A stretch of 64,000 nt of DNA from a bacterium (GCA_963674695.2 CAXXGI010000002.1:96001-160000); one strand, 5' to 3'; counted from the first letter of the stretch, positions 28,068 to 52,534 are shown. A program made the numbers and translations. The notes: a model not told the origin generated them from the sequence alone.

Positions 28068-28075
28068 GATATTCA

Positions 28076-28435: not shown

Positions 28436-28436
28436 A

Positions 28437-35460: not shown

Positions 35461-35563
35461 GTGCGAGGGCCTTAAGCGATTCTACAAAATGCCATTGTCC
35501 CCGGAATTGCTTAAGGTCCGAAATTTTAATGCAGCAACAACAAATTGAAAGGAGGTGATTGAG

Positions 35564-35773: not shown

Positions 35774-35884
35774 GAATGCGTGAGGAGTGGTTAAATGGAT
35801 CTTTGAATTTGGGAAAAAGAATGTTGGCCGCATGGGTGCCATGGGGGCACTTGTGGTGGAACCAACAAGAAGGAGGGTAAAGAT

Positions 35885-36091
35885 ATGCCAGTTGAAAAAA
35901 CCATAGCTAGTTCGAGTTTGGCGGAAGTTATCGATCGCATCCTTGATAAGGGTATTGTGATCGATGCGTGGGCAAGGCTCTCGTTGGTCGGAATTGAATT
36001 TCTGGCCCTTGAAGCGCGTGCGGTTGTTTCCGGTGTTGAGACCTATCTGAAATATGCAGAAGCGATAGGCCTAACCGCCACTGCTGCATAG
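35885..36091 (+). CDS. gvpA: Gas vesicle structural protein GvpA (copy 2)
   Basis: Same signature as copy 1. Confidence 0.97.
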
Positions 36092-36167
36092 GTACCACTA
36101 ATTGGTCTTTTTGTTGGGTATCATGGTGATACCTAAAATGGAAGGCCAGTAAACATGGAGGGTTAAG

Positions 36168-36383
36168 ATGCCAGTCGAGAAAACCATAGCCAGTTCAAGT
36201 TTGGCAGAGGTTATCGATCGTATCCTTGACAAGGGTATAGTGATCGATGCCTGGGCACGGCTCTCTCTGGTCGGAATTGAATTTCTGGCCCTTGAGGCGC
36301 GTGTGGTGGTCTCCGGTGTGGAGACATATTTAAAGTATGCAGAGGCAATAGGGCTTACTGCTACTTCGGCAACGCCTGCGTAG
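36168..36383 (+). CDS. gvpA: Gas vesicle structural protein GvpA (copy 3)
   Basis: Same signature as copy 1. Confidence 0.97.
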
Positions 36384-39114: not shown

Positions 39115-39443
39115 AGACTATGATTGATGTCAAACATGTAGGAAGCGTGAAATCCATACGTCACGTTATGACCAAGTCCAAGGGGGGATCGGTAAACCTG
39201 CCTTATCTGAATCTGTATGTCCATCAGATGAATAGATATAAGCTGGATAAGGAAAAACGTGCATTAATTAACCGCCTTGCAGAGATTGAAAAACAACTGA
39301 ATGATATCGATAGCAAATGCATGTCTTTGGGGCCGGAGATCATGACTACTCTAGGTGAAAAACCGAAGAGGCGCAAACGGGGGAAAGACCCCGACGGAAA
39401 TGGCAGGAGACGTGTGGTAAAGAAGTTAAAGGTTAGTTATTGA
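39111..39443 (+). CDS. Gas vesicle cluster hypothetical protein (gvpV position)
   Basis: Coupled to gvpN; YLNLY..EK..L coiled coil. Confidence 0.6.
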   Translation: MKTMIDVKHVGSVKSIRHVMTKSKGGSVNLPYLNLYVHQMNRYKLDKEKRALINRLAEIEKQLNDIDSKCMSLGPEIMTTLGEKPKRRKRGKDPDGNGRRRVVKKLKVSY

Positions 39444-39445
39444 TT

Positions 39446-39525
39446 CGTATCTCGTGAAGCGTGAAGCGTATCTCGAAATCAGAAATCTATTATTGTGAGA
39501 TACGAGATACGTTTCACGAGATACG
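39446..39525. repeat. Gene-less inverted heptamer hairpin element
   Basis: CGTATCT CGTGAAG CGTGAAG CGTATCT .. AGATACG AGATACG TTTCACG AGATACG. Confidence 0.9.
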
Positions 39526-39539
39526 AAAAGGAGGCTCGA

Positions 39540-40085
39540 ATGTTCAAAAAGAAAAAGAAGGATGAAGAACCCTTTGAACTCGATTTTGGAGTCGGCAAAA
39601 TTAACCTAGGAGGGTTACTCAAAGGATTTGGTAAATTAGTTGATTTCGCCGACGAGTTGGAAAAGGCCGGCGGTGAGATGAAGAAAGAGGGCGAATTCAA
39701 GGTCAAGGGGGCAAAGGACCTTAAAGGGGTTTACGGATTTTCCATCCGGACCGGCATAGGAAAAGATGGTACGGAAAGACCCATCGTAGAGCCCTTTGGA
39801 AATATTAAAAAGACGTCCAAGGGTGCGGTGGTGGAAGATACTAGGGAACCCATCGTAGATGTTTTCGATGAGAATGGGAAGTTGCAGATCGTCGCGGAAA
39901 TGCCCGGGGTTTCCGAACAGGAAGTAGAATATACCATTAACGGCGATGTGCTCATTTTAAACAGTATCGGGGAGAAGAAATACAGCAAAGAGATATTGCT
40001 CCCCTATCCGGTTTCGGAAAAAGATGCAGAGAAGAATTATAAAAACGGGATCTTTGAATTAAAACTTAAGAAGAGAGAGCAGTAG
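39540..40085 (+). CDS. Hsp20/alpha-crystallin (GvpH-like) protein
   Basis: GVYGFSIRTG, REPIVDVF, VAEMPGV, YKNGIFE. Confidence 0.85.
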   Translation: MFKKKKKDEEPFELDFGVGKINLGGLLKGFGKLVDFADELEKAGGEMKKEGEFKVKGAKDLKGVYGFSIRTGIGKDGTERPIVEPFGNIKKTSKGAVVEDTREPIVDVFDENGKLQIVAEMPGVSEQEVEYTINGDVLILNSIGEKKYSKEILLPYPVSEKDAEKNYKNGIFELKLKKREQ

Positions 40086-40139
40086 CCCTGCCAGCTTTTC
40101 TAAACCCTTTCCTGTAGGGAAGGCTTTGAGGAACGCTTT

Positions 40140-42308
40140 ATGACTAAAGATAAGAATAAAACCGCAAAGAAAAAATCCGCAATTACACTTCGGGTATCAG
40201 AGGCTCAATCAAAAGATGTTGGTCGAGGTATTGCACGTATGGATCCTGTTGATATGGGGACCATTGGTGCGTCTATCGGTGACGTTATCGAGGTGAAAAG
40301 TAAAGAGCGAGATGCCGTTGCCAAGCTGATGCCTATCTATATGGAGGATCGTGGCAAGAAGATTATTCAAATAGATGGAATCCTCCGTGACAATGCCAAG
40401 GTGGGGATCGATGAAAAGGTGGAAGTGTTAAAAGTTGTTCACCATGAGGCCTTACGAGTGGTCTTAAAGCCGCTACAGGCTGCGTCACTTCGCGGTGACG
40501 AACAATACCTGGGCAAACTCTTTGCCGGCATACCGGTGGTAAAGGGTTCCAAGGTGCGTGCTATTCTCTTTGGTTCAAAGACCCGCGATTTTGAAGTGAT
40601 GGATACATCTCCGTCAGGAGTTGTCTTGGTAAGCCCGCAGACTACCATAGCAATCAAGGGAACAGAGCGTGAAGAGGCAGTAGAGAAAAAACCAGGGGTT
40701 TCTTACGAGGATATTGGGGGCCTGGGTAAGGAGATTCAGCGTGTTCGTGAAATGATAGAGCTTCCCTTGAAATATCCGCAGGTCTTTGACCGGTTGGGAA
40801 TCGATCCGCCCAAAGGTGTTTTGTTATACGGCCCTCCGGGGACAGGAAAGACCCTCATAGCGCGGGCAGTGGCTCATGAGGCTGATGCCAATTTCTTTAC
40901 CGTAAATGGCCCCGAGGTAATACATAAATTTTATGGAGAATCAGAAAAGCATCTTCGTGAATATTTTGAAAAGGCGGCAAATGCAGCCCCTGCTATATTA
41001 TTCATAGATGAGATTGATGCCATTGCGCCCAAAAGGATGGAGGTCCAGGGCGAGGTTGAAAAGAGGGTGGTAGCTACGCTCCTTTCCCAAATGGACGGTT
41101 TAAGAGGTCGTGGAGATATAATTGTAATAGGTGCCACCAACATTCCGGATATACTTGATCCGGCGCTTAGACGCCCCGGACGTTTTGATCGTGAGATTCG
41201 AATAGGAATACCTGATAAAGGTGGCAGAGAACAGATATTGGGCATTCATACGCGCGGCATGCCGCTTGCCAAGGATGTGGATATAAAAAAACTTGCGGAG
41301 ATTACGCATGGTTATGTCGGTGCGGACCTTGAGGCATTGGCCAGAGAGTCAGCCATGAGTTGTCTGCGCAGGTTGTTTGTCGGTTCAGGTGTTTCGCTTG
41401 ATGAAATTCCTCTCGAGAAATTGATGGAGCTTGAAGTTACTATGGATCACTTTATGGAGGCCATGTCAGAGGTAGAGCCTTCTGCGATTCGTGAGGTCTT
41501 TGTAGAGGTTCCTAACGTCACATGGGAAGACGTCGGCGGACTTGACGAGATTAAAAAACGCCTCAAAGAGTCGATTCAGTGGCCACTCGAGTATACCGGA
41601 CTTTTCGAACATGCACATGTCTCCCCGCCAAGAGGTGTCCTTTTGGAAGGCGCACCCGGCACGGGAAAGACACTGATAGCAAAGGCTCTGGCTAATGAGA
41701 GCGGAGTGAATTTTATCTCAATAAAGGGGCCGGAGTTGATGAACAAGTATGTGGGTGAGGCAGAGAAAGGTGTGAGGGAGTTATTCAAAAGGGCCAAGGC
41801 AGCCTCGCCCTGCATTATCTTTTTTGATGAGATTGACTCGATTGTTCCGGAGCGAGGCCATGGTGGTGGCGATTCGGGCGTTACTCAGAGGGTGATCAGC
41901 CAGTTTTTGACGGAGATGGATGGCATTGAGGAACTCAAAGGCGTGATGGTGCTAGGTGCCACAAACCGTAAGGATCTGATCGACCCTGCCCTTCTTCGGA
42001 CGGGCAGATTTGATTTTATCCTTACTGTCGGAATGCCGGATGCCGGAACACGAAGGGAGATATTCGATATTCATACGCGTGGGAAACCTCTGGATTCGAA
42101 TGTAAATATAGATTCGCTTGTTCAAAAGACAGACGGGATGAGCGGTTCAGATATTGAGGCCGTATGCCGCAGGGCTACCATGAATGTCTTGAGATCGTTT
42201 ATCCACGAGCATAAAGAGGCAGCTGATAAGAAAAAGAAATCACTTAAGATCGCAACTGGCGATCTTGAACAAGCATTGGAAGAGGTAAAAAAAGAGAGAG
42301 AAAAGTAA
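40140..42308 (+). CDS. CDC48/p97 family AAA ATPase
   Basis: N-domain (DVGRGIAR) plus two AAA modules (GPPGTGKT, GAPGTGKT, RPGRFD). Confidence 0.95.
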   Translation: MTKDKNKTAKKKSAITLRVSEAQSKDVGRGIARMDPVDMGTIGASIGDVIEVKSKERDAVAKLMPIYMEDRGKKIIQIDGILRDNAKVGIDEKVEVLKVVHHEALRVVLKPLQAASLRGDEQYLGKLFAGIPVVKGSKVRAILFGSKTRDFEVMDTSPSGVVLVSPQTTIAIKGTEREEAVEKKPGVSYEDIGGLGKEIQRVREMIELPLKYPQVFDRLGIDPPKGVLLYGPPGTGKTLIARAVAHEADANFFTVNGPEVIHKFYGESEKHLREYFEKAANAAPAILFIDEIDAIAPKRMEVQGEVEKRVVATLLSQMDGLRGRGDIIVIGATNIPDILDPALRRPGRFDREIRIGIPDKGGREQILGIHTRGMPLAKDVDIKKLAEITHGYVGADLEALARESAMSCLRRLFVGSGVSLDEIPLEKLMELEVTMDHFMEAMSEVEPSAIREVFVEVPNVTWEDVGGLDEIKKRLKESIQWPLEYTGLFEHAHVSPPRGVLLEGAPGTGKTLIAKALANESGVNFISIKGPELMNKYVGEAEKGVRELFKRAKAASPCIIFFDEIDSIVPERGHGGGDSGVTQRVISQFLTEMDGIEELKGVMVLGATNRKDLIDPALLRTGRFDFILTVGMPDAGTRREIFDIHTRGKPLDSNVNIDSLVQKTDGMSGSDIEAVCRRATMNVLRSFIHEHKEAADKKKKSLKIATGDLEQALEEVKKEREK

Positions 42309-42319
42309 GGAGAAAAAAC

Positions 42320-43336
42320 ATGTGGTATTTATATGGAATTATTAAAAGCAAGGATGAATTAGATTTCGGCAATATCGGTTTTGCCGATCCTTATGGTGAG
42401 AACTCTTTAGTAAAAACGATTCCGTTTGAGGATATTTCGATGGTGATCTCCGAACTCGATGAGTGGAAACTGGATGAACGGAATAAAAAGTCGTTGATGA
42501 ATAAATTATTGACCCACCAAAAGACGCTCGAAGAGGTCATGAAAAAGGAATTAGTCATTCCTGTCAAGTTTGGCACGGTCATCAACGATAAGGAAGACAT
42601 AAACGTTATCCTTCGCAAGACATACCGTTCTTTTGTCAAGACGCTGGATGGAATGGCTGACAAGTTTGAGGTCAATCTCACAGTCAGTTGGGATGTGCCG
42701 GGAGAGCTCAAAAGGATTGCCGCCGAAGACGAGGAGATCAAGGAGATGAGACGCAAGGCCGAGGAGATCAGGAGCAAGGAACTGATTATGCAGGTGGGGA
42801 TGGTGCTTGAGGATAAACTCGAAGAACGTCGTTTAAAGATAGCCACTGAAATACTCAGATACTTTGTTGATTCATACGGAGAAACCGTGGAGCACGAAAG
42901 GTTGGAAAATACGATGATACTTAACAACTCCTTTCTAATTTCTAATGCACAAGAAAAGTCCTTTTTGGATTTAACATATAAGTTGGATAAAAAATTTGAG
43001 AGCCGATTTAATTTCAAGTGTCTCATGCCCCTCCCCCCTCACAGTTTTCAGACGGTTGTTATTCAAAAGATTACACCAGAACGATTGAGGAATGCGATGG
43101 AGCTGTTTGATGTAAACGAAAACACGACCCTTGAAATTCTCAAGCAAAAGAACCGTGAACTGACACAGAATTTTCATCCGGATGTAGCGAAGGATTGCAA
43201 TCATGAAGAAAAGTTTTCTGAAATTCACCAGACTTATGATTTGCTCAAGGCATTTTTTGAATGGCAGGAGAATCCTTTTCTCAATATTGACAGTGATCGC
43301 TGTTATTTGAGCCGCGTATTGGAGGGCGGTGTCTGA
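42320..43336 (+). CDS. GvpF/L family protein with C-terminal J-domain
   Basis: YLYGII, HQK..EEV, PVKFGT, PLPPHSF, then LTQNFHPD..FSEIHQTYDLL. Confidence 0.85.
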   Translation: MWYLYGIIKSKDELDFGNIGFADPYGENSLVKTIPFEDISMVISELDEWKLDERNKKSLMNKLLTHQKTLEEVMKKELVIPVKFGTVINDKEDINVILRKTYRSFVKTLDGMADKFEVNLTVSWDVPGELKRIAAEDEEIKEMRRKAEEIRSKELIMQVGMVLEDKLEERRLKIATEILRYFVDSYGETVEHERLENTMILNNSFLISNAQEKSFLDLTYKLDKKFESRFNFKCLMPLPPHSFQTVVIQKITPERLRNAMELFDVNENTTLEILKQKNRELTQNFHPDVAKDCNHEEKFSEIHQTYDLLKAFFEWQENPFLNIDSDRCYLSRVLEGGV

Positions 43337-44079
43337 TGCGTGAGGGAAAGTACATATATTGCATTATAGCTACGGATGAAGCCAAGGAGTTTGGTCCCAT
43401 TGGCCTCGGTGGTCGTGGAGACGAGGTCCATAATGTCTGTTGTGGTGGACTATCCGCAGTTATAAGCAATACGCAGATGACAAAGTACGAACTAAGCCCC
43501 GAGACCCTTCTGGCCCACGAACGCGTGGTTGAAAAAGTAATGAAGGATTACGCTGTTTTGCCGGTCAGATTTTGTACTGTAGCAGAGAGCGTTACTGATA
43601 TCATGCGGTTACTTGAGCTGCGTCATAATGAATTTATTGGCCTCATTAAGGATCTCGAAAATAAAGCCGAGATAGGGGTTAAGGTGTTTTGGAAGGATAT
43701 GGAGATTGTCTTTAACGAAATAGTCAATGAGAACGCCGAGCTAAAAGATAAAGGATTAAAATTTCATCGTTTGGCGGAGGGCGACAGGGTTGAAATAGGT
43801 AAAGAGGTTGCAAAGATATTGGATGATAAAAGGGAGGAGGAGAGTGATATCTGGACATCATCCCTTATTAAGTTATCCAACCAGTATAAAATCCTCAAAG
43901 TTCAGAAAGAGAACATGGTTTTTAATGCCGTATTTTTGGTTGAAAATTTAAGGATGACCAAACTTGACGAAAAGGTGAATGAACTCGCAGGTAGAAAAGG
44001 AAATCGCTATGATGTTAAGTATATAGGGCCAACTCCCCCCTATAATTTTGTCAACCTAGAACTTAAATTAGGGAAGTGA
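43336..44079 (+). CDS. GvpF/L family gas vesicle protein
   Basis: YIYCII, HERVVE, LPVRF, GPTPPYNF. Confidence 0.92.
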   Translation: MREGKYIYCIIATDEAKEFGPIGLGGRGDEVHNVCCGGLSAVISNTQMTKYELSPETLLAHERVVEKVMKDYAVLPVRFCTVAESVTDIMRLLELRHNEFIGLIKDLENKAEIGVKVFWKDMEIVFNEIVNENAELKDKGLKFHRLAEGDRVEIGKEVAKILDDKREEESDIWTSSLIKLSNQYKILKVQKENMVFNAVFLVENLRMTKLDEKVNELAGRKGNRYDVKYIGPTPPYNFVNLELKLGK

Positions 44080-44088
44080 GGTTTGTTA

Positions 44089-44817
44089 ATGTCTCATCCA
44101 AAATACATATACTGCATAATTCAAACGGCGGATGATTTTGATTTTGGTCCCATCGGTTTGAATGACGAGAGAGTTTACACCATTAAATGTGGAAAATTGG
44201 CCGCAGTAGTTAGCGATTCACAGGAAGAAGAATACAGTATGGCCGATGAGGCCCACGTCAAGGCACATGAAATGGTTTTGGAAAAGACAATGGAGAAATT
44301 TGAGATGTTGCCGATCAGGTTCGGCACCGTGGCTCCCAGCACGCACGAGGTCATGAGCTTCATCAAACAGCATCATCGCGATTTCAAGCACCTCATTAAA
44401 AAACTCAAAGGGAGAGTTGAAATAGAAATAGAAATCTTCTGGAAGGAGATGGATCGGGTCTTTGCCGAAATCGTGGAGGAAAGTAAGAGGTTAAAAAAAC
44501 TGAAATCATCCGGTAAACCGAGGAGCAGAGAAGATCTCATAATGGCGGGCCAACTCGTTGGCGCGAAACTTCGTGCTAAAAAGGAGAAAGAGATACTGAG
44601 ATATCTAAAATATATGAAGGGAACTTATGCGGATTTTCGAATAAATCCAACGGCAAAGGACGATCTTATTATGTATGCCTCATTTCTGGTGGATAAAAGT
44701 GGGCAGAACAAATTTGATGAGGCCGTTGATAAAATGGAGGAAGAGAATCGAAATCGCGTAAGGGTGCGTTATATCGGCCCCGTGCCGCCATACAGTTTTG
44801 CAAGTGTGAGGGTTTAA
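44089..44817 (+). CDS. GvpF/L family gas vesicle protein
   Basis: YIYCII, LPIRFGT, GPVPPYSF. Confidence 0.92.
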   Translation: MSHPKYIYCIIQTADDFDFGPIGLNDERVYTIKCGKLAAVVSDSQEEEYSMADEAHVKAHEMVLEKTMEKFEMLPIRFGTVAPSTHEVMSFIKQHHRDFKHLIKKLKGRVEIEIEIFWKEMDRVFAEIVEESKRLKKLKSSGKPRSREDLIMAGQLVGAKLRAKKEKEILRYLKYMKGTYADFRINPTAKDDLIMYASFLVDKSGQNKFDEAVDKMEEENRNRVRVRYIGPVPPYSFASVRV

Positions 44818-44818
44818 A

Positions 44819-45583
44819 ATGAAATCAGGACTATACATGTACTCTGTAATTCGTGTCGATGAAGATTGTTCATTCGGTCCTATTGGCCTTAGCGAGGATT
44901 CGGCAAAGGGGGAAGATGTTTATGTCGTAAGATTCAATGACATAGCCTGCGTGGTCAGCACCTCGGAGGTAAAGGAATGGGAGATAAACCGGGATAATGT
45001 GGTCAGGCATCAGAAGGTCAACGAAGAGGTTATGAAAACCTATACCACGTTGCCTATCAAGTTTTGTACCATCGCTGAAAGCAGCGATCAAATCGTCGAA
45101 AAGTTTCTAAAAAGTCGTTATGATGAGTTGATCGAGAAAATCGATTACTTCTCGGATAAGCGTGAATATGGTGTCAGGGCACACTGGATTGACATGGAAA
45201 AAACATATGAAGAACTTTTGGCTGAAAAGCCTCGTCTCAAGGAGTGGCGTGATCGCCTTGCCAAACTCCCATTTGAGAAGGCGCGAAATGACATGATCAT
45301 CATTGGTGAAGAGGTTCAAAAGGCCTTGAAGAATAAAAAGGAACTTTTCGGAGAAGAACTTTTTGAAGAGTTAAAACCCCTGTCCATAGAGGCAAAGACG
45401 GGAAAGATTATGGGTGATCGCATGGTCTTGAATGGTGCCTTTCTGATTCTTAAGGCGGCACAAAGGGACTTTGATGCCCGTGTAAATGTGCTGTCGGAAA
45501 AACATAAGCACGACCTGAAATTTCGATATGTGGGACCGACCCCGCCGGCAAACTTTATCGAGATCGTGGTCAGTTGGGATTGA
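44819..45583 (+). CDS. GvpF/L family gas vesicle protein
   Basis: HQKVNE, LPIKF, GPTPPANF. Confidence 0.92.
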   Translation: MKSGLYMYSVIRVDEDCSFGPIGLSEDSAKGEDVYVVRFNDIACVVSTSEVKEWEINRDNVVRHQKVNEEVMKTYTTLPIKFCTIAESSDQIVEKFLKSRYDELIEKIDYFSDKREYGVRAHWIDMEKTYEELLAEKPRLKEWRDRLAKLPFEKARNDMIIIGEEVQKALKNKKELFGEELFEELKPLSIEAKTGKIMGDRMVLNGAFLILKAAQRDFDARVNVLSEKHKHDLKFRYVGPTPPANFIEIVVSWD

Positions 45584-45586
45584 CGT

Positions 45587-45835
45587 ATGGGACTACTCTT
45601 TAACTTATTGGGTGCGCCTCTTGTAGGCCCGATCAAACTCACGCAGTGGGTGGCTGAAAAGATCAAAGAGGTAGCTGATCAACGGTTGGGAGATGAGGAA
45701 AAACTCAAATCGGAGCTTATTGAATTGCAGATGATGAGGGAGATGGATGAGATTGGTCAGGAGGCGTTTGAAAAGAAGGAAAAGGAGATTTTAAATGCAA
45801 TCAATGCAGCAAAAGAAAGAAAAAATAGGGGGTAG
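45587..45835 (+). CDS. gvpG: Gas vesicle protein GvpG
   Basis: LLGAPL..WVAEKI..L.ELQM..EI..EAFE.KE.EIL. Confidence 0.85.
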   Translation: MGLLFNLLGAPLVGPIKLTQWVAEKIKEVADQRLGDEEKLKSELIELQMMREMDEIGQEAFEKKEKEILNAINAAKERKNRG

Positions 45836-45837
45836 CT

Positions 45838-46101
45838 ATGAATATAAATGAGGCAAAGGGTAAGGTCGCGCAATTTATCTCCAAGGAATTAGGCAAGGAC
45901 ACCCAAGCTATAAAGTTCCTAAAACTTGCCAAAGAAGGTGAGAACTGGAGCTCGAGCGTGGAGATAACGGAGCAGAATGAATACATGAAAAAATTGGGTT
46001 ACCCGCCGATCTTCGATAAAAATGTGTACAAGATCGAACTCGATGATGCCGGCGAGGTAACCAGTTTTTGCAAAAAAGGCGAAGAGGAAGAGGAGTTTTA
46101 A
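45838..46101 (+). CDS. GvpO/GvpR-like gas vesicle protein
   Basis: W..SVEITE..YKIELDDAGEV. Confidence 0.65.
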   Translation: MNINEAKGKVAQFISKELGKDTQAIKFLKLAKEGENWSSSVEITEQNEYMKKLGYPPIFDKNVYKIELDDAGEVTSFCKKGEEEEEF

Positions 46102-46103
46102 CT

Positions 46104-46195
46104 CGTATCTCGTCGTTCGTATCTCGTATCTCGCAATTCATCAGTGAGACGTTTCTTACGAGATACGCTTCACGAGATACGTTTCACGTAATACG
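46104..46195. repeat. Gene-less inverted heptamer hairpin element
   Basis: CGTATCT CGTCGTT CGTATCT CGTATCT .. TCTTACG AGATACG CTTCACG AGATACG TTTCACG TAATACG. Confidence 0.9.
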
Positions 46196-46202
46196 AGGCA
46201 AA

Positions 46203-48206
46203 ATGGGCGCAGGAGAAACACAAAATACTATTATTGGGGATGCTTCACAGCTTATCTTCGTCGGAGGTAAAGGAGGCGTAGGTAAGACCACTACTGCCGC
46301 TGCCCTCGCCCTTTCGTTAGCTAGAAAATTGCCAGATCACAAAATCGTGATTATTTCCACCGATCCCGCCCATTCCCTTTCTGACAGTTTTGGGATAGCG
46401 ATTGGTGGTGAGAAACCAGTTAGAATAATTACAAAGGGCAACTCAAACCTTTATGCCCAGGAACTCGATGCTGGTTCTCTGCTCAACAAATTCAAGAATG
46501 AAAATGAGGCAGAGATAAAATTACTGGCAGAGCGTGGAACATATTTTGACTCGGATGATATCCAGAGTTTTTTTCGCCTCTCCCTTCCCGGCATTGACGA
46601 AGTGATGTCTGTTTTGGAGATAGGCAGACTGCTTAAGGACGATAATATAAAACATCTGATAGTCGATACTGCCCCAACCGGTCATACCCTGTCGCTGCTT
46701 CGTTTGCCAAAGTTGCTTACAACATGGGTCGATGTTTTTGACCTTTTACAGGAAAAACACCGCATATTGCAGAGGCATTTTTCCGGCAAGGTGGTCAAAG
46801 ATAATGTAGATAATTTTATAGAAGTCATGCGTGGGGATATCAGGGATGTAAGAAATATAATTCAGGACAGGAACAAGTCCCAATTCATCGTTGTAATGCT
46901 GCCGGAGATGCTCAGCCTATTTGAATCAAAGAGGCTTATCGATACGTTAAAGAAACAAGGGATGCCGCTCCATAGTTTGGTATTAAATGGTATTCAAAAT
47001 GCCGGTAGCTGCATTGTTTGTAAGGCGGTTCGTGAAAAGCAGGAAAAAGTGATATCCCTATTAAAAGATAATTTCGCCGGTCTAAGTATTCATCAGGTAC
47101 CGCTCTCCACGCATTCTATTCAGGGCACGCAGGGTCTTGAATGGTTTGCTGCCCATTTAGAGGGCAGAAGCAGCGAAAAGGAAATGTATCTCGCAAATAA
47201 GAGATCACAAGACACCAAGGTACCAAATGCCAGGTATGAGCCACGATTTCATCAGGCATCTTTATCTAAACTACTAAAAGGTTCTCCAAAACTATTCATA
47301 GTCGGTGGCAAGGGCGGTGTAGGTAAGACCACTGTCTCGTGTTGTACATCTATAATGATAGCGGCCAGAGAACCGTCAAAGAAATTTCTGATCTTTTCCA
47401 TCGATCCGGCCCACTCGCTTTCCGATTGTCTAGGGATAAAGATAGAGAGCCGTGAGGCCAAGGTATGTGAGAATCTCTATGCCTCAGAGCTCAATGCCAA
47501 ACTACTTTTAGATGATTTCAAAAAGGAATACACCGACACTATCGATAATCTCTTTGATAAATTCTTTCAAGGTAGCACTTTAAACGCCGGCATGGATTTC
47601 ACTCATGATCGCAAGGTAGTTAAAGCCCTGATAGAGATGACTCCGCCGGGACTGGATGAATTGATGGCCCTGTATCAGGTAATAAATCTGATAAAAGGAG
47701 ACGGAAAGTATGATGCCATCGTCTTCGATACCGCACCCAGCGGCCATCTTTTTCGTTTTCTGGAACTGCCCCATCTGGTGAGAGAATGGCTAAAGGCGAT
47801 ATTCCAACTACTCATAAAATATAAACAGGCCATATCTCTTGGACCGGCTGCAGAAAAGTTGGTTGGGTTGTCTAAGAATATCAGGGAGATCATAGAGATC
47901 ATGCAGGATGAGAGCTTGTGCCGGACCATTGTCGTGTCGACGCCGGAGGCAATGGTGGTCTCGGAGACAAAGAGGTTTGTGAAAAATCTCGAACGCCTTG
48001 GAGTGCCGAGGAACCTCACCATCATCAATATGCTACGTGAAAATACAGAGTGCGATTTTTGCCGCGAAATAAGAAGAGGTCAGGAAGATATGTTGGAGGA
48101 GTTAAAAAAAATGGTATCCAAAGAGTGGATATCTATCCCCTTTCTACCGGAGGATATCAGGGGAATAGATAATTTAAATAAACTGGGCAAGGAGATATAT
48201 CATTAG
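46203..48206 (+). CDS. Tandem-domain ArsA/GET3 family ATPase
   Basis: Two GGKGGVGKTT / DPAHSL / DTAP(T/S)GH modules with CxxC. Confidence 0.92.
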   Translation: MGAGETQNTIIGDASQLIFVGGKGGVGKTTTAAALALSLARKLPDHKIVIISTDPAHSLSDSFGIAIGGEKPVRIITKGNSNLYAQELDAGSLLNKFKNENEAEIKLLAERGTYFDSDDIQSFFRLSLPGIDEVMSVLEIGRLLKDDNIKHLIVDTAPTGHTLSLLRLPKLLTTWVDVFDLLQEKHRILQRHFSGKVVKDNVDNFIEVMRGDIRDVRNIIQDRNKSQFIVVMLPEMLSLFESKRLIDTLKKQGMPLHSLVLNGIQNAGSCIVCKAVREKQEKVISLLKDNFAGLSIHQVPLSTHSIQGTQGLEWFAAHLEGRSSEKEMYLANKRSQDTKVPNARYEPRFHQASLSKLLKGSPKLFIVGGKGGVGKTTVSCCTSIMIAAREPSKKFLIFSIDPAHSLSDCLGIKIESREAKVCENLYASELNAKLLLDDFKKEYTDTIDNLFDKFFQGSTLNAGMDFTHDRKVVKALIEMTPPGLDELMALYQVINLIKGDGKYDAIVFDTAPSGHLFRFLELPHLVREWLKAIFQLLIKYKQAISLGPAAEKLVGLSKNIREIIEIMQDESLCRTIVVSTPEAMVVSETKRFVKNLERLGVPRNLTIINMLRENTECDFCREIRRGQEDMLEELKKMVSKEWISIPFLPEDIRGIDNLNKLGKEIYH

Positions 48207-48220
48207 AAAGGGGGATTTTT

Positions 48221-48580
48221 ATGGCTATAAAACCCGAAATGAAGGAGAGGGAGACGCTCGCTGATGTCCTTGATCGCGTATTGGATAAGGGACTCGTGAT
48301 CAATGCGGACATAGCGGTGTCGCTGGCAGGAACGGAACTCCTGGGTATCAAGATCAGGGCCGCCCTAGCCTCGTTCGAGACAGCGGCTCGCTACGGACTG
48401 CAGTTTCCTTCGGACACCAAACTGGATCTTCCTATATGGAAAGAGGCCAAGGTGGTCAAGGAGGAGTGTCCGCAGTGTGAAAAAAGGGTTGCCCGTCAGG
48501 AACTGCTGGAGAGTGGCTGTCCATGGTGCGGCTTTATGCCTAAACGTGGCATTGAGGCAGCACCTGCTGCGAAAAAATAG
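48221..48580 (+). CDS. gvpJ: GvpJ/GvpA-family protein with C-terminal zinc ribbon
   Basis: LADVLDRVLDKGLVI..ASFETA..YG, then CPQC..CPWCG. Confidence 0.8.
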   Translation: MAIKPEMKERETLADVLDRVLDKGLVINADIAVSLAGTELLGIKIRAALASFETAARYGLQFPSDTKLDLPIWKEAKVVKEECPQCEKRVARQELLESGCPWCGFMPKRGIEAAPAAKK

Positions 48581-48636
48581 CGGACAGCGTTGAGCGGATA
48601 GTAATTCATGCAATTCTATACGCTAACAGCTATACA
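48578..48636. repeat. Variant inverted heptamer element (TAGCGGA/CTATACG units)
   Basis: TAGCGGA CAGCGTT GAGCGGA TAG .. CTATACG CTAACAG CTATACA before a GGGAGG RBS. Confidence 0.5.
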
Positions 48637-48650
48637 CTGGGAGGTTCATT

Positions 48651-48884
48651 ATGCCGGATGCATTTAAAACAGTTAGGGCCATACAAAAAGGTCTGGATGC
48701 TATGTCCAAGAAACTCGAAAACTCCAGAAACGAGAGACTTCGCGAAATAGATAAACGCCTAAAAGAAGTAAATAAGAAGATCTCGGATCAATTTGGTGAA
48801 AGGATGGAAGGCAGTCGAAAGAGGCCTGCGATGCAGCACAAAGAGCCTCTTAGTATGAAAAAGCCTCCACGAAAAAAGAGGTGA
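48651..48884 (+). CDS. Small basic hypothetical protein
   Basis: RBS present; in operon context. Confidence 0.6.
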   Translation: MPDAFKTVRAIQKGLDAMSKKLENSRNERLREIDKRLKEVNKKISDQFGERMEGSRKRPAMQHKEPLSMKKPPRKKR

Positions 48885-48887
48885 TGT

Positions 48888-49178
48888 ATGAAAATCGATC
48901 TCGAAGGGGATAATCTTAAGGGGAGTCTCTTGGGGCTGGTCATAGCCATAGTAGAGATACTACACGAAACCCTTGAACATCAAGCCTTGCGGAGGATGGA
49001 TGGTGAGAGTCTTTCAGAGGCGCAGATCGAGCGTTTGGGTAATTCACTTATGAAACTCAAAGAGACGATAGAAGAGTTAAAGGAAGAACAGGGTATTTGT
49101 GAGGCAGTTCATAGCCTTCGCAAACAGTTAGATGGTCTTGTTGATGGATCTATATGGTCAGGGAGGGAAAAGGTATGA
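48888..49178 (+). CDS. gvpK: Gas vesicle protein GvpK
   Basis: LLGLVIAIVEIL..LEHQALRRM..LSEAQIERLG. Confidence 0.9.
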   Translation: MKIDLEGDNLKGSLLGLVIAIVEILHETLEHQALRRMDGESLSEAQIERLGNSLMKLKETIEELKEEQGICEAVHSLRKQLDGLVDGSIWSGREKV

Positions 49179-49927
49179 GCGAAGGATATTATCTTTATTG
49201 TATTGTTGACGGTTCCGACAACGCTTCGCTAGGGCCGATAGGCGTCGATGATTCTTTTGTCATCACTATTTCAAATAAGGATATCTCTGCGGTCGTCCAT
49301 CATGTCACAGGAGATGTAAAGATCGAAGACACTGAAAAATCATTACAATGGGTGGGGAAGCATCAATCCGTGGTAGAAGAGGCATGGAAAAAATATAAGA
49401 CCGTCCTCCCCTTTGCCTTTGGTACGATTATTAGGGGCGATGAAGGTGAACTCAAAAAATGGATGGAGAAGGAGCATGACCGGTTGGTAAAAAGTATGAT
49501 GAAGGTAAAGGGCAAAGCGGAATATGGTGTGCAGATATTCTGGTTTCCTTCAAGATGCCTCGATCAACTTGTAAATTCCAGCGCAGAACTAAAAGACCTC
49601 AAGAAAAAATCAGAAGGGGAAAATTCCGGTACAGCCTATATGTATAAGAAGAGGTACGAAAAGGCCTTGAAGGACGAAATAGAACATAAGGCCTCGGAAC
49701 TTTTTAGGAGTTTCTTTGAGCGTATTAAAGCGTGTGTGACCGAAATAACGGTGGAAAAGATCAAGACCCTTGAGGAGGACAAACAGATGTTACTCAATGT
49801 GTCCTGTCTGGCCGACGAAGGTCAGGTGGAGGTGTTGGGTAATGTCCTTGAAGATATAGGGGCCGGCGAGGATCATCCGGTGCGATTTACCGGACCATGG
49901 CCCCCCTATTCATTTGTAGGTATGTAA
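49175..49927 (+). CDS. GvpF/L family gas vesicle protein
   Basis: YLYCIV, HQSVVE, VLPFAFGT, FTGPWPPYSF. Confidence 0.92.
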   Translation: MSEGYYLYCIVDGSDNASLGPIGVDDSFVITISNKDISAVVHHVTGDVKIEDTEKSLQWVGKHQSVVEEAWKKYKTVLPFAFGTIIRGDEGELKKWMEKEHDRLVKSMMKVKGKAEYGVQIFWFPSRCLDQLVNSSAELKDLKKKSEGENSGTAYMYKKRYEKALKDEIEHKASELFRSFFERIKACVTEITVEKIKTLEEDKQMLLNVSCLADEGQVEVLGNVLEDIGAGEDHPVRFTGPWPPYSFVGM

Positions 49928-49930
49928 ACT

Positions 49931-50170
49931 ATGAAACCCATTCGAGAAAAAGAGGCGACGCTAGTAGACCTGCTGGATCGCTTGTTGGACAAAGGCCTAG
50001 TGTTAAACGCCGATCTGGTGATCACTATGGGTGATGTCCCCCTGATCGGTATCAACCTGAAAGCGGCCATTGCCGGGATGGAGACCATGCTGCAATATGG
50101 ATTGATGAGAGAGTTTGATAAAGAGGTCAGCGAAGAGCGTGAAGCGTATCTCGTGAAGAGTGAAGCGTAA
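49931..50170 (+). CDS. GvpJ/M/S-type GvpA-family minor protein
   Basis: TLVDLLDRLLDKGLVL..AAIAGMETMLQYG. Confidence 0.85.
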   Translation: MKPIREKEATLVDLLDRLLDKGLVLNADLVITMGDVPLIGINLKAAIAGMETMLQYGLMREFDKEVSEEREAYLVKSEA

Positions 50171-50231
50171 AATCCGTGAAGCATCGTTCGTGAAGTGCTT
50201 GCGAGATACGAAATGCTCTTCACGAGATACG
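50138..50231. repeat. Inverted heptamer element overlapping 3' end of upstream CDS
   Basis: CGTGAAG CGTATCT CGTGAAG AGTGAAG .. AGATACG AAATGCT CTTCACG AGATACG. Confidence 0.85.
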
Positions 50232-50245
50232 AGGATGGAGGCAAT

Positions 50246-50734
50246 ATGATTAAAAGTGGATTGGATTTACATCGTGAACTCCCCTCTCCACAATTGGAGT
50301 CTGGAGAAAAGGTGATAAGAAAATGCACGGGGACACTCGATACAGGACGTGCCGCCTTCTCTACATTTCGCCCATGCAACATCTATTTAACCGACCGGAG
50401 GCTTCTTTTGGCACAGGTGAGAAAGGTCATCAAAGACTTCCGCTATTCTACGATTAGAGAACTTACTGTTGTGAAAAGAAAATGGTTGGCCGGCAAGATG
50501 GTTCCCCAACTGCAAATTACACTAAAGGACGGGAAGGTACACTTTGTGGTTATGAATGAACCGTGGGTGTGGCTTGCGGATATGGCTGGATTTGGAGAGA
50601 TGAACATAAAACAACAAATTGACGAGTCAGCCCCCATTTCTCTACCTGAGAAAATTTCGGATGAGAAAAAATCCCTAAGGGGACAGAAAAAAGGGAAAGT
50701 TCGGCAACATCGAGGCGTGAAACGTCGTTCGTGA
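50246..50734 (+). CDS. Hypothetical protein (PH/GRAM-like)
   Basis: LESGEKV..IYLTDRRLLL pattern. Confidence 0.55.
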   Translation: MIKSGLDLHRELPSPQLESGEKVIRKCTGTLDTGRAAFSTFRPCNIYLTDRRLLLAQVRKVIKDFRYSTIRELTVVKRKWLAGKMVPQLQITLKDGKVHFVVMNEPWVWLADMAGFGEMNIKQQIDESAPISLPEKISDEKKSLRGQKKGKVRQHRGVKRRS

Positions 50735-50775
50735 AGCGTGAAAAACGAGATACGCTTCACGAAATACGAGATGCG
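50716..50775. repeat. Inverted heptamer element
   Basis: CGTGAAA CGTCGTT CGTGAAG .. AGATACG CTTCACG AAATACG AGATGCG, then RBS and ATG 50783. Confidence 0.88.
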
Positions 50776-50782
50776 AGGAAAA

Positions 50783-52534
50783 ATGGCAGTAATAGGTATA
50801 GATCTCGGCACAACTTATAGCGTTGTGTCCTACATTAAAGATGGTGTGCCAACTATTATACCCAATGCAGAGGGTGAAGATCTCACACCTTCAATAGTCG
50901 GGTTTGATAATTCCGGCCATGTCTTTGTGGGTAAGCTTGCCGAAGAGAGATCTATTCTGGATTCAGAGGGGACCGTTCGCTCAATAAAGAGAAAAATGGG
51001 GAGCGATTTTACGGCGTTGGTCCGCGGACGATACTATACCCCAACCATGATATCATCCTTTATTCTCGGAAAACTTAAAAGGGATGCCGAGAGTTGTCTT
51101 GGTGAGAAAGTTTCAGAGGCGGTTATTACTGTTCCAGCATATTTTAGTGATAAGGCGCGGGAGGCGACGAAAAATTCTGCCGAAATTGCCGGACTTAAAG
51201 TTTTGAGGATCATCAACGAACCTACGGCAGCAACGCTTGCCTATGGCATTTCTCAAAAAGAAGGTGAACAGGTCATGGTCTGGGACCTCGGCGGTGGCAC
51301 CTTCGATGTGTCTATCCTCGAGTTCTCCGGCGGTGTTTACGAGGTTAAATCTACAAGTGGTGATATGAAACTGGGCGGAGACGATTGGCGCGACGCCTTA
51401 TCACGGCACTTCTTAGACCTTCTTTGCAATCAATACAAATCTGATTTTGTAGAGACTCCGGATATGTTGAACCGCATATTGCTCATTAGCGAAAAAGCCA
51501 AGAAGGATCTCACCAATAATGAAGAGACGAATATCAGCTTATCATTTCCCGGCTCTGAGGGTAAGTGGCATGTGGGGCGGATTGTTGTAACTCGTCAGGA
51601 ATTTGAATCACTGTCATCGCATTTATGCGATAGATTGATCCTCCCGGCCAAGCAGGCATTAAAGGACGCAAGGGTGACGACCGGAGACCTCGATAAAGTT
51701 ATTCTTGTAGGCGGGGCAACCCGGATGCCAATGGTCAGGCAGAGAGTAGCCGAATTTGCAGGCAGAGAACCATATATTGATATCGATCCTGATAAAGTAG
51801 TGGCCGTTGGTGCTGCGATACAGGCGGGGATACTTACCGGCGCACTAAAGAAGGCGGTGCTGGTTGATGTAATTCCACTGTCGCTTGGGATAGAGACGCA
51901 GGGGGGAATATTCACCAAATTAATCGAACGCAATACAAAGGTGCCGATATCTAAAGATAGGATATTTACTACGGCAATGGACAATCAGCCCGAGGTGGAA
52001 ATACACGTCTTGCAAGGGGAAAGAGCGCTCGCCGAACACAATGTCTCTCTTGGTAATTTCACGCTTACTGAAATACCGGAGGCATCGAAGGGAATTCCAA
52101 AGATCAGCGTAATCTTCTCGGTCGATATAAACGGCATACTAAATGTCCGTGCCGAAGATGTCTATACCGGAAATGAGAGGGAGATGATTGTGCGGTCGGA
52201 TCGCCTGCAGCAGGATGATATCAATAAGTTGATTAAAGAAGCAGAAAACTACAAGGAGAACGATGATCTCCTTAAGGACACGATAGTCGCCAGGGTTGAA
52301 CTGGAGAGGATTGTGGAAGCGGCCAAACAGTCTATTGATGAGATGAAAATACAATCGTCCGACAAATCTTATAAAGAGGTGGTTTTATTGATTGAGAAGG
52401 CAGAGGACATGTTATCAAACGGCGATTTAATGGGGTTGAAAGAGATATCTCAAAACATAGAGGATACGATGGATTTAATATATGATAGGTGGAAAAACGA
52501 AACAAAAGAGGCCGAGCCAGCAACGGCAGGATGA
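50783..52534 (+). CDS. Hsp70/DnaK-family chaperone (accessory)
   Basis: IGIDLGTT, VITVPAYF, INEPTAA, DLGGGTFD, LVGGATRMP. Confidence 0.93.
   Translation: MAVIGIDLGTTYSVVSYIKDGVPTIIPNAEGEDLTPSIVGFDNSGHVFVGKLAEERSILDSEGTVRSIKRKMGSDFTALVRGRYYTPTMISSFILGKLKRDAESCLGEKVSEAVITVPAYFSDKAREATKNSAEIAGLKVLRIINEPTAATLAYGISQKEGEQVMVWDLGGGTFDVSILEFSGGVYEVKSTSGDMKLGGDDWRDALSRHFLDLLCNQYKSDFVETPDMLNRILLISEKAKKDLTNNEETNISLSFPGSEGKWHVGRIVVTRQEFESLSSHLCDRLILPAKQALKDARVTTGDLDKVILVGGATRMPMVRQRVAEFAGREPYIDIDPDKVVAVGAAIQAGILTGALKKAVLVDVIPLSLGIETQGGIFTKLIERNTKVPISKDRIFTTAMDNQPEVEIHVLQGERALAEHNVSLGNFTLTEIPEASKGIPKISVIFSVDINGILNVRAEDVYTGNEREMIVRSDRLQQDDINKLIKEAENYKENDDLLKDTIVARVELERIVEAAKQSIDEMKIQSSDKSYKEVVLLIEKAEDMLSNGDLMGLKEISQNIEDTMDLIYDRWKNETKEAEPATAG

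Follow-up and report, generated by a model that had tools for sequence, protein, structure and literature searches.

Why does the same heptamer hairpin, without a gene of its own, recur at gene junctions of a gas vesicle operon? We addressed this question for a bacterial DNA window, i.e., the whole analysed stretch of 64,000 nucleotides (GCA_963674695.2 CAXXGI010000002.1:96001-160000), in which a first-pass annotation had noted four such elements and had read them either as derivatives of a cassette with a four-helix-bundle gene or as cis sites that tune a very long operon. The elements (E1–E4, Table 1) are hairpins of 60–95 nt built from tandem CGTNNNN heptamers and their complements, and the coordinates, units, and 7-nt phase given for them are borne out by the sequence: CGTATCT, CGTGAAG, CGTGAAA, CGTCGTT, and the respective complements are present in all five elements of the window, that is, in E1–E4 and in a gene-bearing copy, E0. 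In E1, the left arm reads CGTATCT CGTGAAG CGTGAAG CGTATCT and the right arm AGATACG AGATACG TTTCACG AGATACG. All four also start at or across the upstream stop codon and end against the next ribosome-binding site, as had been annotated: E1 and E2 begin 2 nt past the stop codon (39441–39443; 46099–46101), while E3 and E4 contain it in their left arm (50168–50170; 50732–50734), E3 covering the last 11 codons of the GvpA/J-like ORF, stop included, and E4 the stop of the ORF that follows E3. Each ends 7–14 nt 5' of the next start codon (14 nt for E3, 7 nt for E4) and abuts a GGAGG/AGG-type ribosome-binding site, as read from the sequence. When inverted repeats were ranked across positions 23500–56000, ten of the top eleven were E1–E4 or the arms of E0.

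Table 1. Heptamer elements of the window and the gene enclosed by E0.
Feature	Position	Strand	Composition or context
E0 left arm	28033–28067	+	five in-phase units: CGTATCT CGTGAAG CGTGAAA CGTATTT CGTGAGG
Four-helix-bundle gene	28076–28435	+	119 aa, PF05635 23S_rRNA_IVP; in E0 loop
E0 right arm	28437–28471	+	ends in AGATACG CTTCACG AGATACG; 16 nt 5' of response-regulator gene 28488–28883
E1, gene-less hairpin	39446–39525	+	between ORF 39111–39443 and GvpH/Hsp20-like ORF 39540–40085
E2, gene-less hairpin	46104–46195	+	between GvpO-like ORF 45838–46101 and fused ArsA gene 46203–48206
E3, gene-less hairpin	50138–50231	+	from GvpA/J-like ORF 49931–50170 to ORF 50246–50734
E4, gene-less hairpin (shortest of the four)	50716–50775	+	from ORF 50246–50734 to Hsp70-family gene 50783–52534

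All four elements have the capacity for long stems, with arms of 16–36 nt that are 72–100% complementary, and all four fold stably as RNA (z −3.5 to −8.0, based on 200 shuffles per element). E1 reaches −44.0 kcal/mol (z −8.0; arms 36 nt, 81% complementary) with an outer stem of 20 uninterrupted pairs, E2 −37.3 kcal/mol (z −4.7; arms 25–32 nt, 72–84%), E3 −43.1 kcal/mol (z −5.4; arms 16 nt, 100%), and E4 −25.8 kcal/mol (z −3.5; arms 17 nt, 88%); the right arm of E4 also complements the E3 left arm at 17 of 17 positions. No PF05635/S23p-family ORF lies between the arms of E1–E4, whose loops measure only 10–45 nt, and no Rfam family matched within positions 27500–52000 even at E ≤ 1; the elements sit between protein-coding genes and not in a 23S rRNA helix.

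The affiliation of these hairpins becomes apparent from E0: E1–E4 are empty relatives of the arms around the PF05635 gene, with units identical in kind. E0 begins immediately 3' of the stop of a histidine-kinase gene (24319–28032), and its arms (31 nt, 84% complementary, 377 nt apart) form a duplex of −43.3 kcal/mol on the sense versus −41.9 kcal/mol on the antisense strand. The enclosed gene matches Pfam PF05635 with an E-value of 1.7e-37 and 128 bits (cut-off 33.8), and its protein has a relative in the PDB, 2gsc (XCC0516; E 1.2e-20). With a PF05635 gene in the loop of inverted arms, E0 has the layout of an ORF-bearing intervening sequence (IVS) of 23S rRNA. In Coxiella burnetii, the IVS is described as a long terminal inverted repeat whose loop contains an S23p ORF, with tandem heptameric repeats in the stem region that vary in number between strains, and its excision by RNase III, which cuts in the stem, was shown experimentally (PMC4990558). 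E0 resembles this IVS in its layout, in the PF05635/S23p gene within the inverted-repeat loop, in the heptamer stem, and in its location inside a presumably transcribed unit. In contrast to the Coxiella case, however, the host transcript here is an mRNA operon instead of 23S rRNA, E1–E4 lack an ORF, the arms contain nothing but heptamers in which CGT is constant, and cleavage is putative. The explanation that we favor, with belief and doubt about evenly balanced, is that E1–E4 belong, without a gene of their own, to an IVS-type repeat family and are transcribed in the operon, folding as long RNA stems.

E1–E4 are inserted relative to the orthologous operon. Genome G014, whose operon is the closest (0.41 GC) and which is also the array-richest of the 93 genomes searched, carries a syntenic gas-vesicle operon from the kinase gene through the ORF after the Hsp70 gene (38–96% amino-acid identity), and none of its 38.3 kb contains an array of at least three in-phase units. 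Its junction orthologous to E1 comprises stop, ribosome-binding site, and start, nothing more, its orthologs flanking the E3 junction overlap without a spacer, and the four-helix-bundle gene is absent from its kinase/regulator junction. The orthologous operon of a further genome, G026, is likewise free of heptamer arrays over 28 kb. It is this lack of arrays in the orthologous operons that identifies E1–E4 as insertions, and the shared units uphold their reading as gene-less relatives of the cassette arms.

In the host genome, the exact dimer CGTATCTCGTGAAG occurs six times in 3.03 Mb, always within an island of 0.41–0.48 GC (whole genome 0.58), while the reversed control is absent. Because the exact units are confined to a 41–48% GC island of a 58% GC genome, we read them as a donor signature. 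That the closest operon belongs to G014, the genome richest in arrays, accords with this reading. The first-pass annotation had seen no such element in the host backbone, which holds for the exact dimer but not beyond it: contig C1 has three CGTGAAG-CGT arrays, and most of the genome's 185 arrays of at least three in-phase CGTNNNN/NNNNACG units are in the backbone, which is filled by other unit families. The E1–E4 family itself is nearly restricted to the island, with five of eight pattern matches. Elsewhere, the family pattern matches 49 times in G014, dispersed over many contigs, 15 times in G086, and 27 times in Nitrospira moscoviensis, with no control matches in any of them. The 27 matches on the N. 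moscoviensis chromosome form about 19 separate regions, with a PF05635 gene next to only one of them. Contig C110 of G086 carries a chemotaxis operon filled with the family, having E1–E4 units at five junctions and a 74%-identical four-helix-bundle gene between arms; judged by eye, the arms of several G086 hairpins pair poorly beyond the CGT/ACG triplets. The exact 28-mer left arm is found in at least 119 metagenome contigs, and a four-helix-bundle gene lies within 2 kb in only three of 80 such loci. The position flush against a start codon applies to five of five elements in the window and also in G086 and sampled G014 loci, yet the metagenome sample shows it only weakly (17 of 60 versus 61 of 300 random positions). 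Given the dispersal in G014, N. moscoviensis, G086, and the metagenome loci, the arrays of donor-like genomes occur genome-wide regardless of the protein, the very outcome that the first-pass annotation had named as refuting its interpretation.

Consequently, E1–E4 are not a regulator designed for the gas-vesicle operon, as the family is widespread, and the proposal of cis sites special to this long operon or to chaperone genes is not supported. Even within the window, the claim that three of the four precede chaperone genes stands only for ArsA and Hsp70, clear chaperone-type genes 3' of E2 and E4: the "Hsp20" ORF after E1 has sub-threshold GvpH/HSP20 matches only (E 0.002), and no Pfam family was found in the 162-aa ORF after E3. 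We propose that the hairpins were inserted between stop codon and next ribosome-binding site of the gas-vesicle operon, probably in a donor lineage of low GC that harbors the family genome-wide, and came to the host genome with the horizontally acquired island; their seeming restriction to the island would follow from this joint arrival.

The hairpins are presumably transcribed within the long + strand operon and would then fold with 13–20 uninterrupted pairs in longer, interrupted stems. The sense strand folds better in four of five window elements and in all four G086 hairpins, and the four window hairpins have 12 G-U pairs on the sense versus 4 on the antisense strand. The "same polarity" of E1–E4 is uninformative at the level of units, because a CGTNNNN...NNNNACG hairpin reads alike on both strands; the G-U pairs, however, favor the + strand in three of the four, E2 being the sole exception with the better − strand. 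Of 64 cassette arm pairs, 46 are more stable on the sense strand (17 on the antisense, 1 equal), the G086 cassette arms folding better on the antisense strand, and at 37 of 53 loci the cassette is co-directional with both neighbors. The sense strand is also favored genome-wide among hairpins flanked by co-directional ORFs (28 of 42 sense, 13 antisense, one tie; Wilcoxon p 0.0065), on the basis of crude ORF calls and of loci that are not independent of each other. This bias could reflect strand composition or transcription-linked mutation instead of selection. At the resulting intercistronic stems, RNase III, the gene for which is present in the host genome, may cut in the stem, or the stem may act as a barrier to exonucleases; by either route, the long transcript would be split into segments differing in stability. 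E2 and E4, whose stems are interrupted after 9–13 pairs, are for this reason poor RNase III substrates. Our working model of processing or stabilization at the hairpins is that of phage T7 early mRNA, in which RNase III cuts intercistronic stems and so gives rise to separate messages with protective hairpins at their ends; PMC4990558 lists Dunn and Studier 1973 among its references. E1–E4 would correspond to these stems as proposed intercistronic stems in a long polycistronic transcript; each T7 site, unlike E1–E4, has a sequence of its own with an internal loop, and the T7 sites neither form repeat arrays nor are dispersed or mobile.

Stable hairpins at gene boundaries might also partition operon transcription as intrinsic terminators or attenuators, but this is hardly conceivable here: no T-run follows any of E1–E4, the A/G-rich ribosome-binding regions come next instead, and a consensus scan of the + strand from 38500 to 52000 yielded no terminator-like site. 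REP/BIME elements offer another precedent, comprising many gene-less palindromes at gene ends and rare copies whose inverted repeats flank a RAYT gene, with the repeat class following the gene clade. The elements described here share all three features, and four Y1_Tnp-family ORFs exist in the host genome, so that mobilization of REP-like palindromes in trans by RAYT/IS200-type (Y1 HUH) transposases comes to mind. These four ORFs are, however, flanked by palindromes of their own that are unrelated to the heptamer arrays and lack a 7-nt periodicity; moreover, the gene between heptamer arms is always a four-helix bundle without known catalytic activity, never a transposase, and the arms are periodic arrays instead of a single palindrome, which makes this origin very improbable. 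Somewhat unlikely, in our judgment, is that E1–E4 are selfish or neutral DNA repeats, either MITE-like insertions or slippage-grown arrays, that are tolerated between stop codon and ribosome-binding site without any RNA role. Their presence varies between orthologous operons, the family is scattered widely over phyla and metagenomes, unit number and order are variable, and the elements fill exactly the dispensable space, even replacing C-terminal codons of two genes. Of the terminal inverted repeats and the target-site duplication that mark a MITE, inverted arms are present, while the window and G014 junctions have diverged too far for a duplication to be delimited; no transposase is associated. 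Purely DNA-level elements would also be expected neither to fold better on the sense strand nor to lie in co-directional cassettes, nor, unless a mobility machinery reads them, to retain identical units across lineages with saturated synonymous sites.

Relatives of the four-helix-bundle protein with at least 62% identity are encoded at 43 loci in Pirellulales, Nitrospira, Sedimentisphaerales, Omnitrophota, Atribacterota, and others. At 30 of them, at least two core CGT-units lie upstream and at least two complementary units downstream (reverse order at three), and 39 of the 43 have at least two core units in their flanks, compared with none of 21 loci below 62%. An inverted-repeat score of at least 12 is reached by 43 of 64 loci with both flanks present, but by none of 53 controls located 500 nt more distally; a period of 7 is common to every arm that matches itself to at least 80% (18 upstream, 29 downstream; controls 0 of 59 and 0 of 58). 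In 24 close relatives, 63 of 92 units of the upstream arms exactly match one of the six window units, despite a median identity of 0.24 at four-fold degenerate sites, which are thus saturated. Since a stem needs complementarity alone, RNase III does not explain this strong conservation, which points to a sequence-specific reader or a mobility mechanism. Such a reader might be the four-helix-bundle protein, recognizing its own heptamer word in RNA or DNA, with the hairpins as putative operators for processing, stability, translation, or repeat spread. Apart from the conserved units and their tracking of protein similarity, this idea draws on the host genome's other solitary PF05635 genes, each with private arm units that are also found as dispersed hairpins, on the seven class genomes with at least four pattern matches, three of which hold a relative at ≥74% identity while the other 86 genomes have none, and on the ORF, intact in all close relatives examined. 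The commonest arm length, five in-phase units (11 and 12 of 43 loci), fits 2gsc, for which PMC4990558, citing Lin et al. 2006, gives a homopentameric state, but the distribution is broad (1–8 units), and in Coxiella the ORF is reportedly in decay and probably not translated (PMC4990558). Furthermore, co-inheritance of gene and arms would give the same correlation without any binding, L055, L057, and L071 have other units at 65–66% identity, the array-rich genomes G008, G031, G053, and G056 lack a relative above 51% identity (MAG incompleteness applies), and arrays far outnumber the genes and lie mostly far from them. Altogether, we consider recognition by the protein rather unlikely, and equally doubtful that each PF05635 clade reads its own 7-nt word through a pentameric ring binding arrays of about five units, RNA or DNA.

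The preferred reading, IVS-type stems dispersed as gene-less copies, touches on other heptamer families. Cyanobacterial STRR are further intergenic heptamer repeats, and the arrays of G014, G086, and N. moscoviensis show STRR-like features: tandem period 7, intergenic location, and many dispersed copies. Direct TAACTGA heptamer repeats are known from Beggiatoaceae, cyanobacteria, and Bacteroidetes (PMC4679880) and heptamer repeats from Nostoc (bioRxiv 10.1101/2022.06.06.494920). Like our elements, these consist of 7-nt units in tandem, lie mostly between genes, and often stop a few nt 5' of a start codon; they are lineage-specific yet common to distant phyla, and subject to indels in steps of 7. 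They are, however, described mainly as direct arrays (one inverted repeat in 170 sets of the Beggiatoa genome), whereas here inverted pairs form hairpins. Their binding partner is given as unknown, and "four helix" and "intervening sequence" each have no mention in the text of PMC4679880. Gmet_H4 of Geobacter metallireducens, with four to five heptanucleotides in tandem at each of tens of sites between and within genes, proposed as global regulatory elements (PMC2700814), is likewise a multicopy array at many sites; its units differ, and the passages of that source considered here report neither hairpin pairing nor a protein gene. The first-pass annotation had suspected an undescribed repeat-plus-protein system. 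We found no literature linking PF05635/TIGR02436 genes in general to heptamer-repeat arms; the Coxiella IVS is the one link that came to light. If the protein did read its units, the hundreds of heptamer hairpins at gene junctions and rRNA intervening sequences would be operators of a widespread, undescribed post-transcriptional (or repeat-spreading) system, and the PF05635 protein would be the "unknown partner" of intergenic heptamer repeats in cyanobacteria, Beggiatoaceae, Geobacter, and others.

Four gene-less hairpins (E1–E4) and one gene-bearing element (E0) punctuate the gas-vesicle cluster. In each of E1–E4, in-phase CGTNNNN heptamers (CGTATCT, CGTGAAG, CGTGAAA, CGTCGTT) lead via a short loop into complementary NNNNACG units (AGATACG, CTTCACG, TTTCACG). 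The first-pass annotation had reported these elements, which prove real and non-random, with fold z-scores of -3.5 to -8.0 (200 shuffles per element) and in a ranking of the inverted repeats in 23500–56000: 10 of the top 11 are parts of E1–E4 or E0. The common polarity that it had also noted is uninformative at the unit level, since a hairpin of this kind shows its CGT-units first and its ACG-units second whichever strand is read. Cross-pairing is possible among all five elements according to an inverted-repeat search. The left arm of E3 (50138–50169) and the right arm of E4 (50745–50775), complementary at 17/17 positions, flank a 162-aa ORF (50246–50734), and their pairing in the transcript could loop out this entire ORF. 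Rfam yielded no match at E up to 1 for 27500–52000. Three runs of DNA reads, kept as contigs and compared with 39000–51000, contained no other letters and no indels; in this region they revealed neither repeat-number polymorphism at E1–E4 nor credible joints at the hairpins, cross-matches occurring only between arms of different elements.

Coordinates and folding of the heptamer elements in the window (E0–E4) and positions of the divergent PF05635 pair element on contigs C2 and C3 of the same genome
Feature	Coordinates	Strand	Description
E0 arms	28033-28471		units as in E1-E4; 31 nt, 84% complementary, 377-nt loop
E1	39446-39525	+	heptamer hairpin; RNA fold -44.0 kcal/mol, z -8.0
E2	46104-46195	+	heptamer hairpin; RNA fold -37.3 kcal/mol, z -4.7
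E3	50138-50231	+	heptamer hairpin; RNA fold -43.1 kcal/mol, z -5.4
E4	50716-50775	+	heptamer hairpin; RNA fold -25.8 kcal/mol, z -3.5
Divergent PF05635 pair element, full copies	C3:6729-7430, C3:18517-19273, C3:635331-636028, C2:896635-897341, C3:919080-919787		
Divergent PF05635 pair element, partial copies	C3:56441-57126, C3:796516-797204		

E0 lies at the head of the cluster between a histidine-kinase and a response-regulator gene, and its loop encodes a 119-aa four-helix-bundle protein (28076–28435) of PF05635, ‘23S rRNA-intervening sequence protein’ (E 1.7e-37), with 2gsc as the nearest solved structure. Pfam assignments delineate a single long plus-strand cluster that begins with the kinase, regulators, and a sigma-54 activator and comprises three gvpA copies, a GvpN-like AAA protein, a CDC48-type ATPase, five GvpF/L genes, GvpG, a fused ArsA, GvpJ/K-type genes, and an Hsp70-family gene. 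The gvpA-type genes stand in tandem (35555–36383; 72, 68, and 71 aa), and the related genome G014 shows two matching positions. E1 and E2 start 2 nt past a stop codon, and the stop of the upstream gene falls within E3 and within E4, so that the C-terminal residues of those two proteins are encoded by repeat units. The right arms of all five elements stop 7–16 nt before the next start codon, abutting a GGAGG/AGG-type ribosome-binding site. From about 18 kb on, the GC content of the window is 0.41–0.48 versus 0.58 genome-wide, and we refer to this DNA as the island. Downstream of the gas-vesicle genes (55418–61799) it carries an HTH gene, a 1150-aa SNF2/helicase with a NOV_C domain, and a 978-aa DUF1156 protein, a gene set that looks defence-related.

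Orthologous operons without E1–E4, which came from a genome search separate from the ArsA contig scans, provide clean ‘before’ states. In G014, a member of the same order, the cluster is syntenic from the kinase gene to the ORF past the Hsp70 gene (38–96% amino-acid identity, 0.41 GC). Its junction corresponding to E1 consists of a stop, a ribosome-binding site, and a start; that of E2 is an unrelated 58-nt spacer, at that of E3 the genes overlap, and that of E4 is an A-rich spacer. The kinase/regulator junction of G014 holds no gene, and arrays of at least three in-phase units are absent from the 38.3 kb of its cluster as well as from 28 kb in G026, a genome of the same class. By this comparison E1–E4 are insertions. 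The check that it had proposed, for a four-helix-bundle gene between such arms at orthologous junctions, was half positive: G026 does carry a PF05635 gene in inverted arms at a junction (contig C5, L011/L012, 20200–20760 in joined coordinates), with the right arm reaching the next start codon, but this is a GvpF/L–GvpJ-like junction one removed from E3, and the unit differs from the window's. An ArsA protein scan for closer relatives of the island returned none in genome contigs or metagenome contigs.

The first-pass annotation had seen no such element in the host backbone. This stands for the exact dimer CGTATCTCGTGAAG, whose six genome matches all lie inside the island (reversed control 0), but not for the architecture at large: contig C1 holds three CGTGAAG-CGT arrays, and a regex for at least three in-phase CGTNNNN/NNNNACG units matched 185 arrays in the genome, for which our own arithmetic gives a chance expectation of about 12 per type; the majority lie in the backbone, with units such as CGTGACT, CGTAACT, and CGTTCAC. 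Tandem Repeats Finder reported 566 arrays of period 7 and 262 of period 8, compared with 208, 91, and 94 for periods 5, 10, and 11. Short-loop hairpins of tandem 7/8-mers number 64, E1–E4 included; the underlying greedy ORF calls cover 91% of the genome, and intergenic fractions are lower bounds. The other solitary PF05635 genes (C2:239995, C1:748913, C3:541268) each sit inside inverted 7–8-mer arrays with private units (GAGATGGC octamers at C2:239995), and these private units recur as dispersed hairpins in the genome. The gene at C1:748913–749227 lies between inverted GTGGGAA/TTCCCAC arrays and, by eye, has one tRNA gene on either side; it would be a cassette in a tRNA operon resembling an intervening sequence (IVS) of 23S rRNA. 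At a distance of about 500 nt there is a Y1-transposase-like ORF. An element in which two divergent PF05635 genes face away from a palindrome at its centre, and in which the outer flanks carry period-7-like arrays, occurs in five copies. One RVT_1 (reverse transcriptase) locus (C2:707298–707929) is distant from the island.

The occurrence of the same units elsewhere contradicts the first-pass idea that the elements serve this operon, or chaperone genes, in particular. A 4.4-kb contig of G086, another genome of the class, encodes MCP, CheW, a PF05635 protein, PilZ, CheY, CheD, CheY, and CheB and displays window units at five junctions; its four-helix-bundle gene lies between arms and is 74% identical to the window's, and one G086 left arm is identical to that of E1. 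The pattern CGTGAAG-CGT-NNNN-CGT was matched in 19 of 93 class genomes (control matches total 4), with 49 matches on many contigs of G014, 15 in G086, eight each in this genome and G031, and six, five, and four in G056, G008, and G053. In a sample of G014 loci the arrays form hairpins at gene boundaries, in several cases with an arm right beside the ribosome-binding site or start codon. The same outer module, CGTGAAG CGTCCAC c CGTGAAG ..., recurs unchanged, together with its complement, in many G014 hairpins (L225–L232); three such modules adjoin a four-helix-bundle gene that is cut by the end of G014 contig C76 (76% identical to the window's over residues 62–119). On the Nitrospira moscoviensis chromosome the pattern was matched 27 times (control 0), spread over about 19 separate regions, and PF05635 seven times; only one pattern region adjoins such a gene. 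The exact 28-mer of the E1 left arm recurs in at least 119 metagenome contigs, and a four-helix-bundle match within 2 kb was found at three of 80 fetched loci. Classing of 83 occurrences gave 15 gene-less hairpins, 65 ‘other’, and three at contig ends, by a strict rule that overlooks hairpins containing GAGATGC-type units (L145, L177, L185 by eye) and tests a loop gene in one orientation only, so that 3/80 is the robust figure. An ORF of at least 60 aa starts within 30 nt at 17/60 metagenome occurrences in the NNNNACG reading and 7/60 in the other, compared with 61/300 random positions. We therefore read the confinement to the island in this genome as history: the island probably derives from a low-GC, G014-like lineage that carries the family genome-wide.

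The tie between units and protein emerged from a scan with the window protein against one genome per species, which yielded 75 loci. An inverted-repeat score of at least 12 was reached at 43/64 loci with both flanks and at 0/53 controls 500 nt further out, and period 7 was found in every arm whose self-match reaches 80% (18 upstream, 29 downstream; controls 0/59 and 0/58). The 43 loci of at least 62% identity span Pirellulales, Nitrospira, Sedimentisphaerales, Omnitrophota, Atribacterota, and others; two loci were left out because of a short or masked flank. Window (core) units are present at least twice in 39 of these 43, in canonical order in 30 and reverse order in three; the four exceptions have other CGT-type heptamers (L055, L057, L071) or an AGT/TGT variant of the window units (L068). 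Below 62% identity, 0/21 loci possess core units, and other heptamers take their place. In 24 close relatives, four-fold degenerate sites have a median identity of 0.24, the level of random sequence, while 63/92 upstream-arm units equal one of six window units. As the units are conserved across phyla where synonymous sites are randomized, the unit sequence itself is constrained beyond pairing; the stem alone does not explain this, which leaves room for a sequence-specific reader, for which an E0-type protein is the obvious candidate. The commonest longest in-phase run per arm is five units (11/43 upstream, 12/43 downstream; range 0–8, L031–L085), and a solved relative of the E0 protein is reported as a pentamer (PMC4990558); this possible match is suggestive only. 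At the genome level the link between gene and arrays is imperfect: a relative of at least 74% identity is encoded in 3/7 array-rich genomes and in none of the other 86. Nitrospira loci L032, L037, L042, L051, and L059 exhibit a conserved leader with a small hairpin before the ribosome-binding site, about 70 nt upstream of the gene start; in L037, L042, and L059 the arm types around the gene are in reversed order, with more arrays outside. Planctomycetota cassettes (L033, L034, L038, L041, L046, L047, L052, and others) often directly precede genes starting MEGKVAVLGD... or MLANVNATRME..., which look like V-type ATPase subunits, a pattern suggestive of either ancient vertical inheritance at two junctions in a single operon or recurrent insertion at those sites.

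Whether selection acts on RNA or DNA can be approached through strand asymmetry: perfect Watson–Crick stems fold equally on both strands, and any difference reflects G-U versus A-C. E1–E4 contain 12 G-U pairs in sense and four in antisense orientation, and the sense strand folds better in 4/5 window elements and 4/4 G086 hairpins, though not in the G086 cassette arms. For cassette arm pairs, sense is better in 46/64, antisense in 17, and one is equal; mean duplex values for cognate versus non-cognate arms are -55.2 and -42.0, used for comparison only, as duplex folding of 100-nt flanks over-pairs and absolute energies are not meaningful. Genome-wide hairpins between co-directional ORFs follow the same trend (sense 28/42, antisense 13, one tie; Wilcoxon p 0.0065), and cassettes are co-directional with both neighbours at 37/53 loci. 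With the caveats that loci are mutually related, gene calls are crude, and strand composition may contribute, these comparisons argue for function, or at the least for mutation pressure, acting on the transcript.

We propose that the operon transcript includes E1–E4 as stems that RNase III, whose gene is present in this genome, would cut or that would block exonucleases, thereby splitting the roughly 25-kb message into segments. The better candidates are E1 and E3 because of their 18–20 uninterrupted pairs; E2 and E4 are marginal. A role as terminators was rejected, as 38500–52000 has no terminator-like site on the plus strand. RAYT-type mobilization is disfavoured: the genome's four Y1-transposase ORFs have unrelated, non-periodic flanks. 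E1–E4 belong, as ordinary members, to a widespread family of heptamer hairpins that is tied to PF05635 cassettes, and they were brought in with the island; for the gas-vesicle operon they are probably ordinary passengers, which may set segmental mRNA stability.

Within the sources found, the nearest experimentally studied relative is the Coxiella burnetii IVS, in which an S23p ORF lies within a 28-bp stem, tandem heptamers of strain-variable number stand just upstream of the ORF, and RNase III was mapped to cut the stem at the first repeat (PMC4990558). Since the first description of the IVS, no function has been assigned to PF05635/S23p proteins (PMC4990558); literature on the PF05635/TIGR02436/S23 family came down to this paper, genome notes, and a DGR review that mentions its likeness to Avd (PMC10053308). 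Reports of intergenic heptamer repeats go back decades, with no agreement on origin or partner; such repeats are described in Beggiatoaceae, cyanobacteria, and Bacteroidetes (PMC4679880), Nostoc (bioRxiv 10.1101/2022.06.06.494920), and Geobacter (PMC2700814), all three sources leaving the partner unknown, and the passages found in them do not mention PF05635. The present locus joins the two, with a gene-bearing copy and four empty copies on one predicted transcript. The repeat–protein link remains undescribed in the searchable literature and is experimentally tractable, and a repeat family of this kind can flag DNA acquired by horizontal transfer and indicate its donor lineage.
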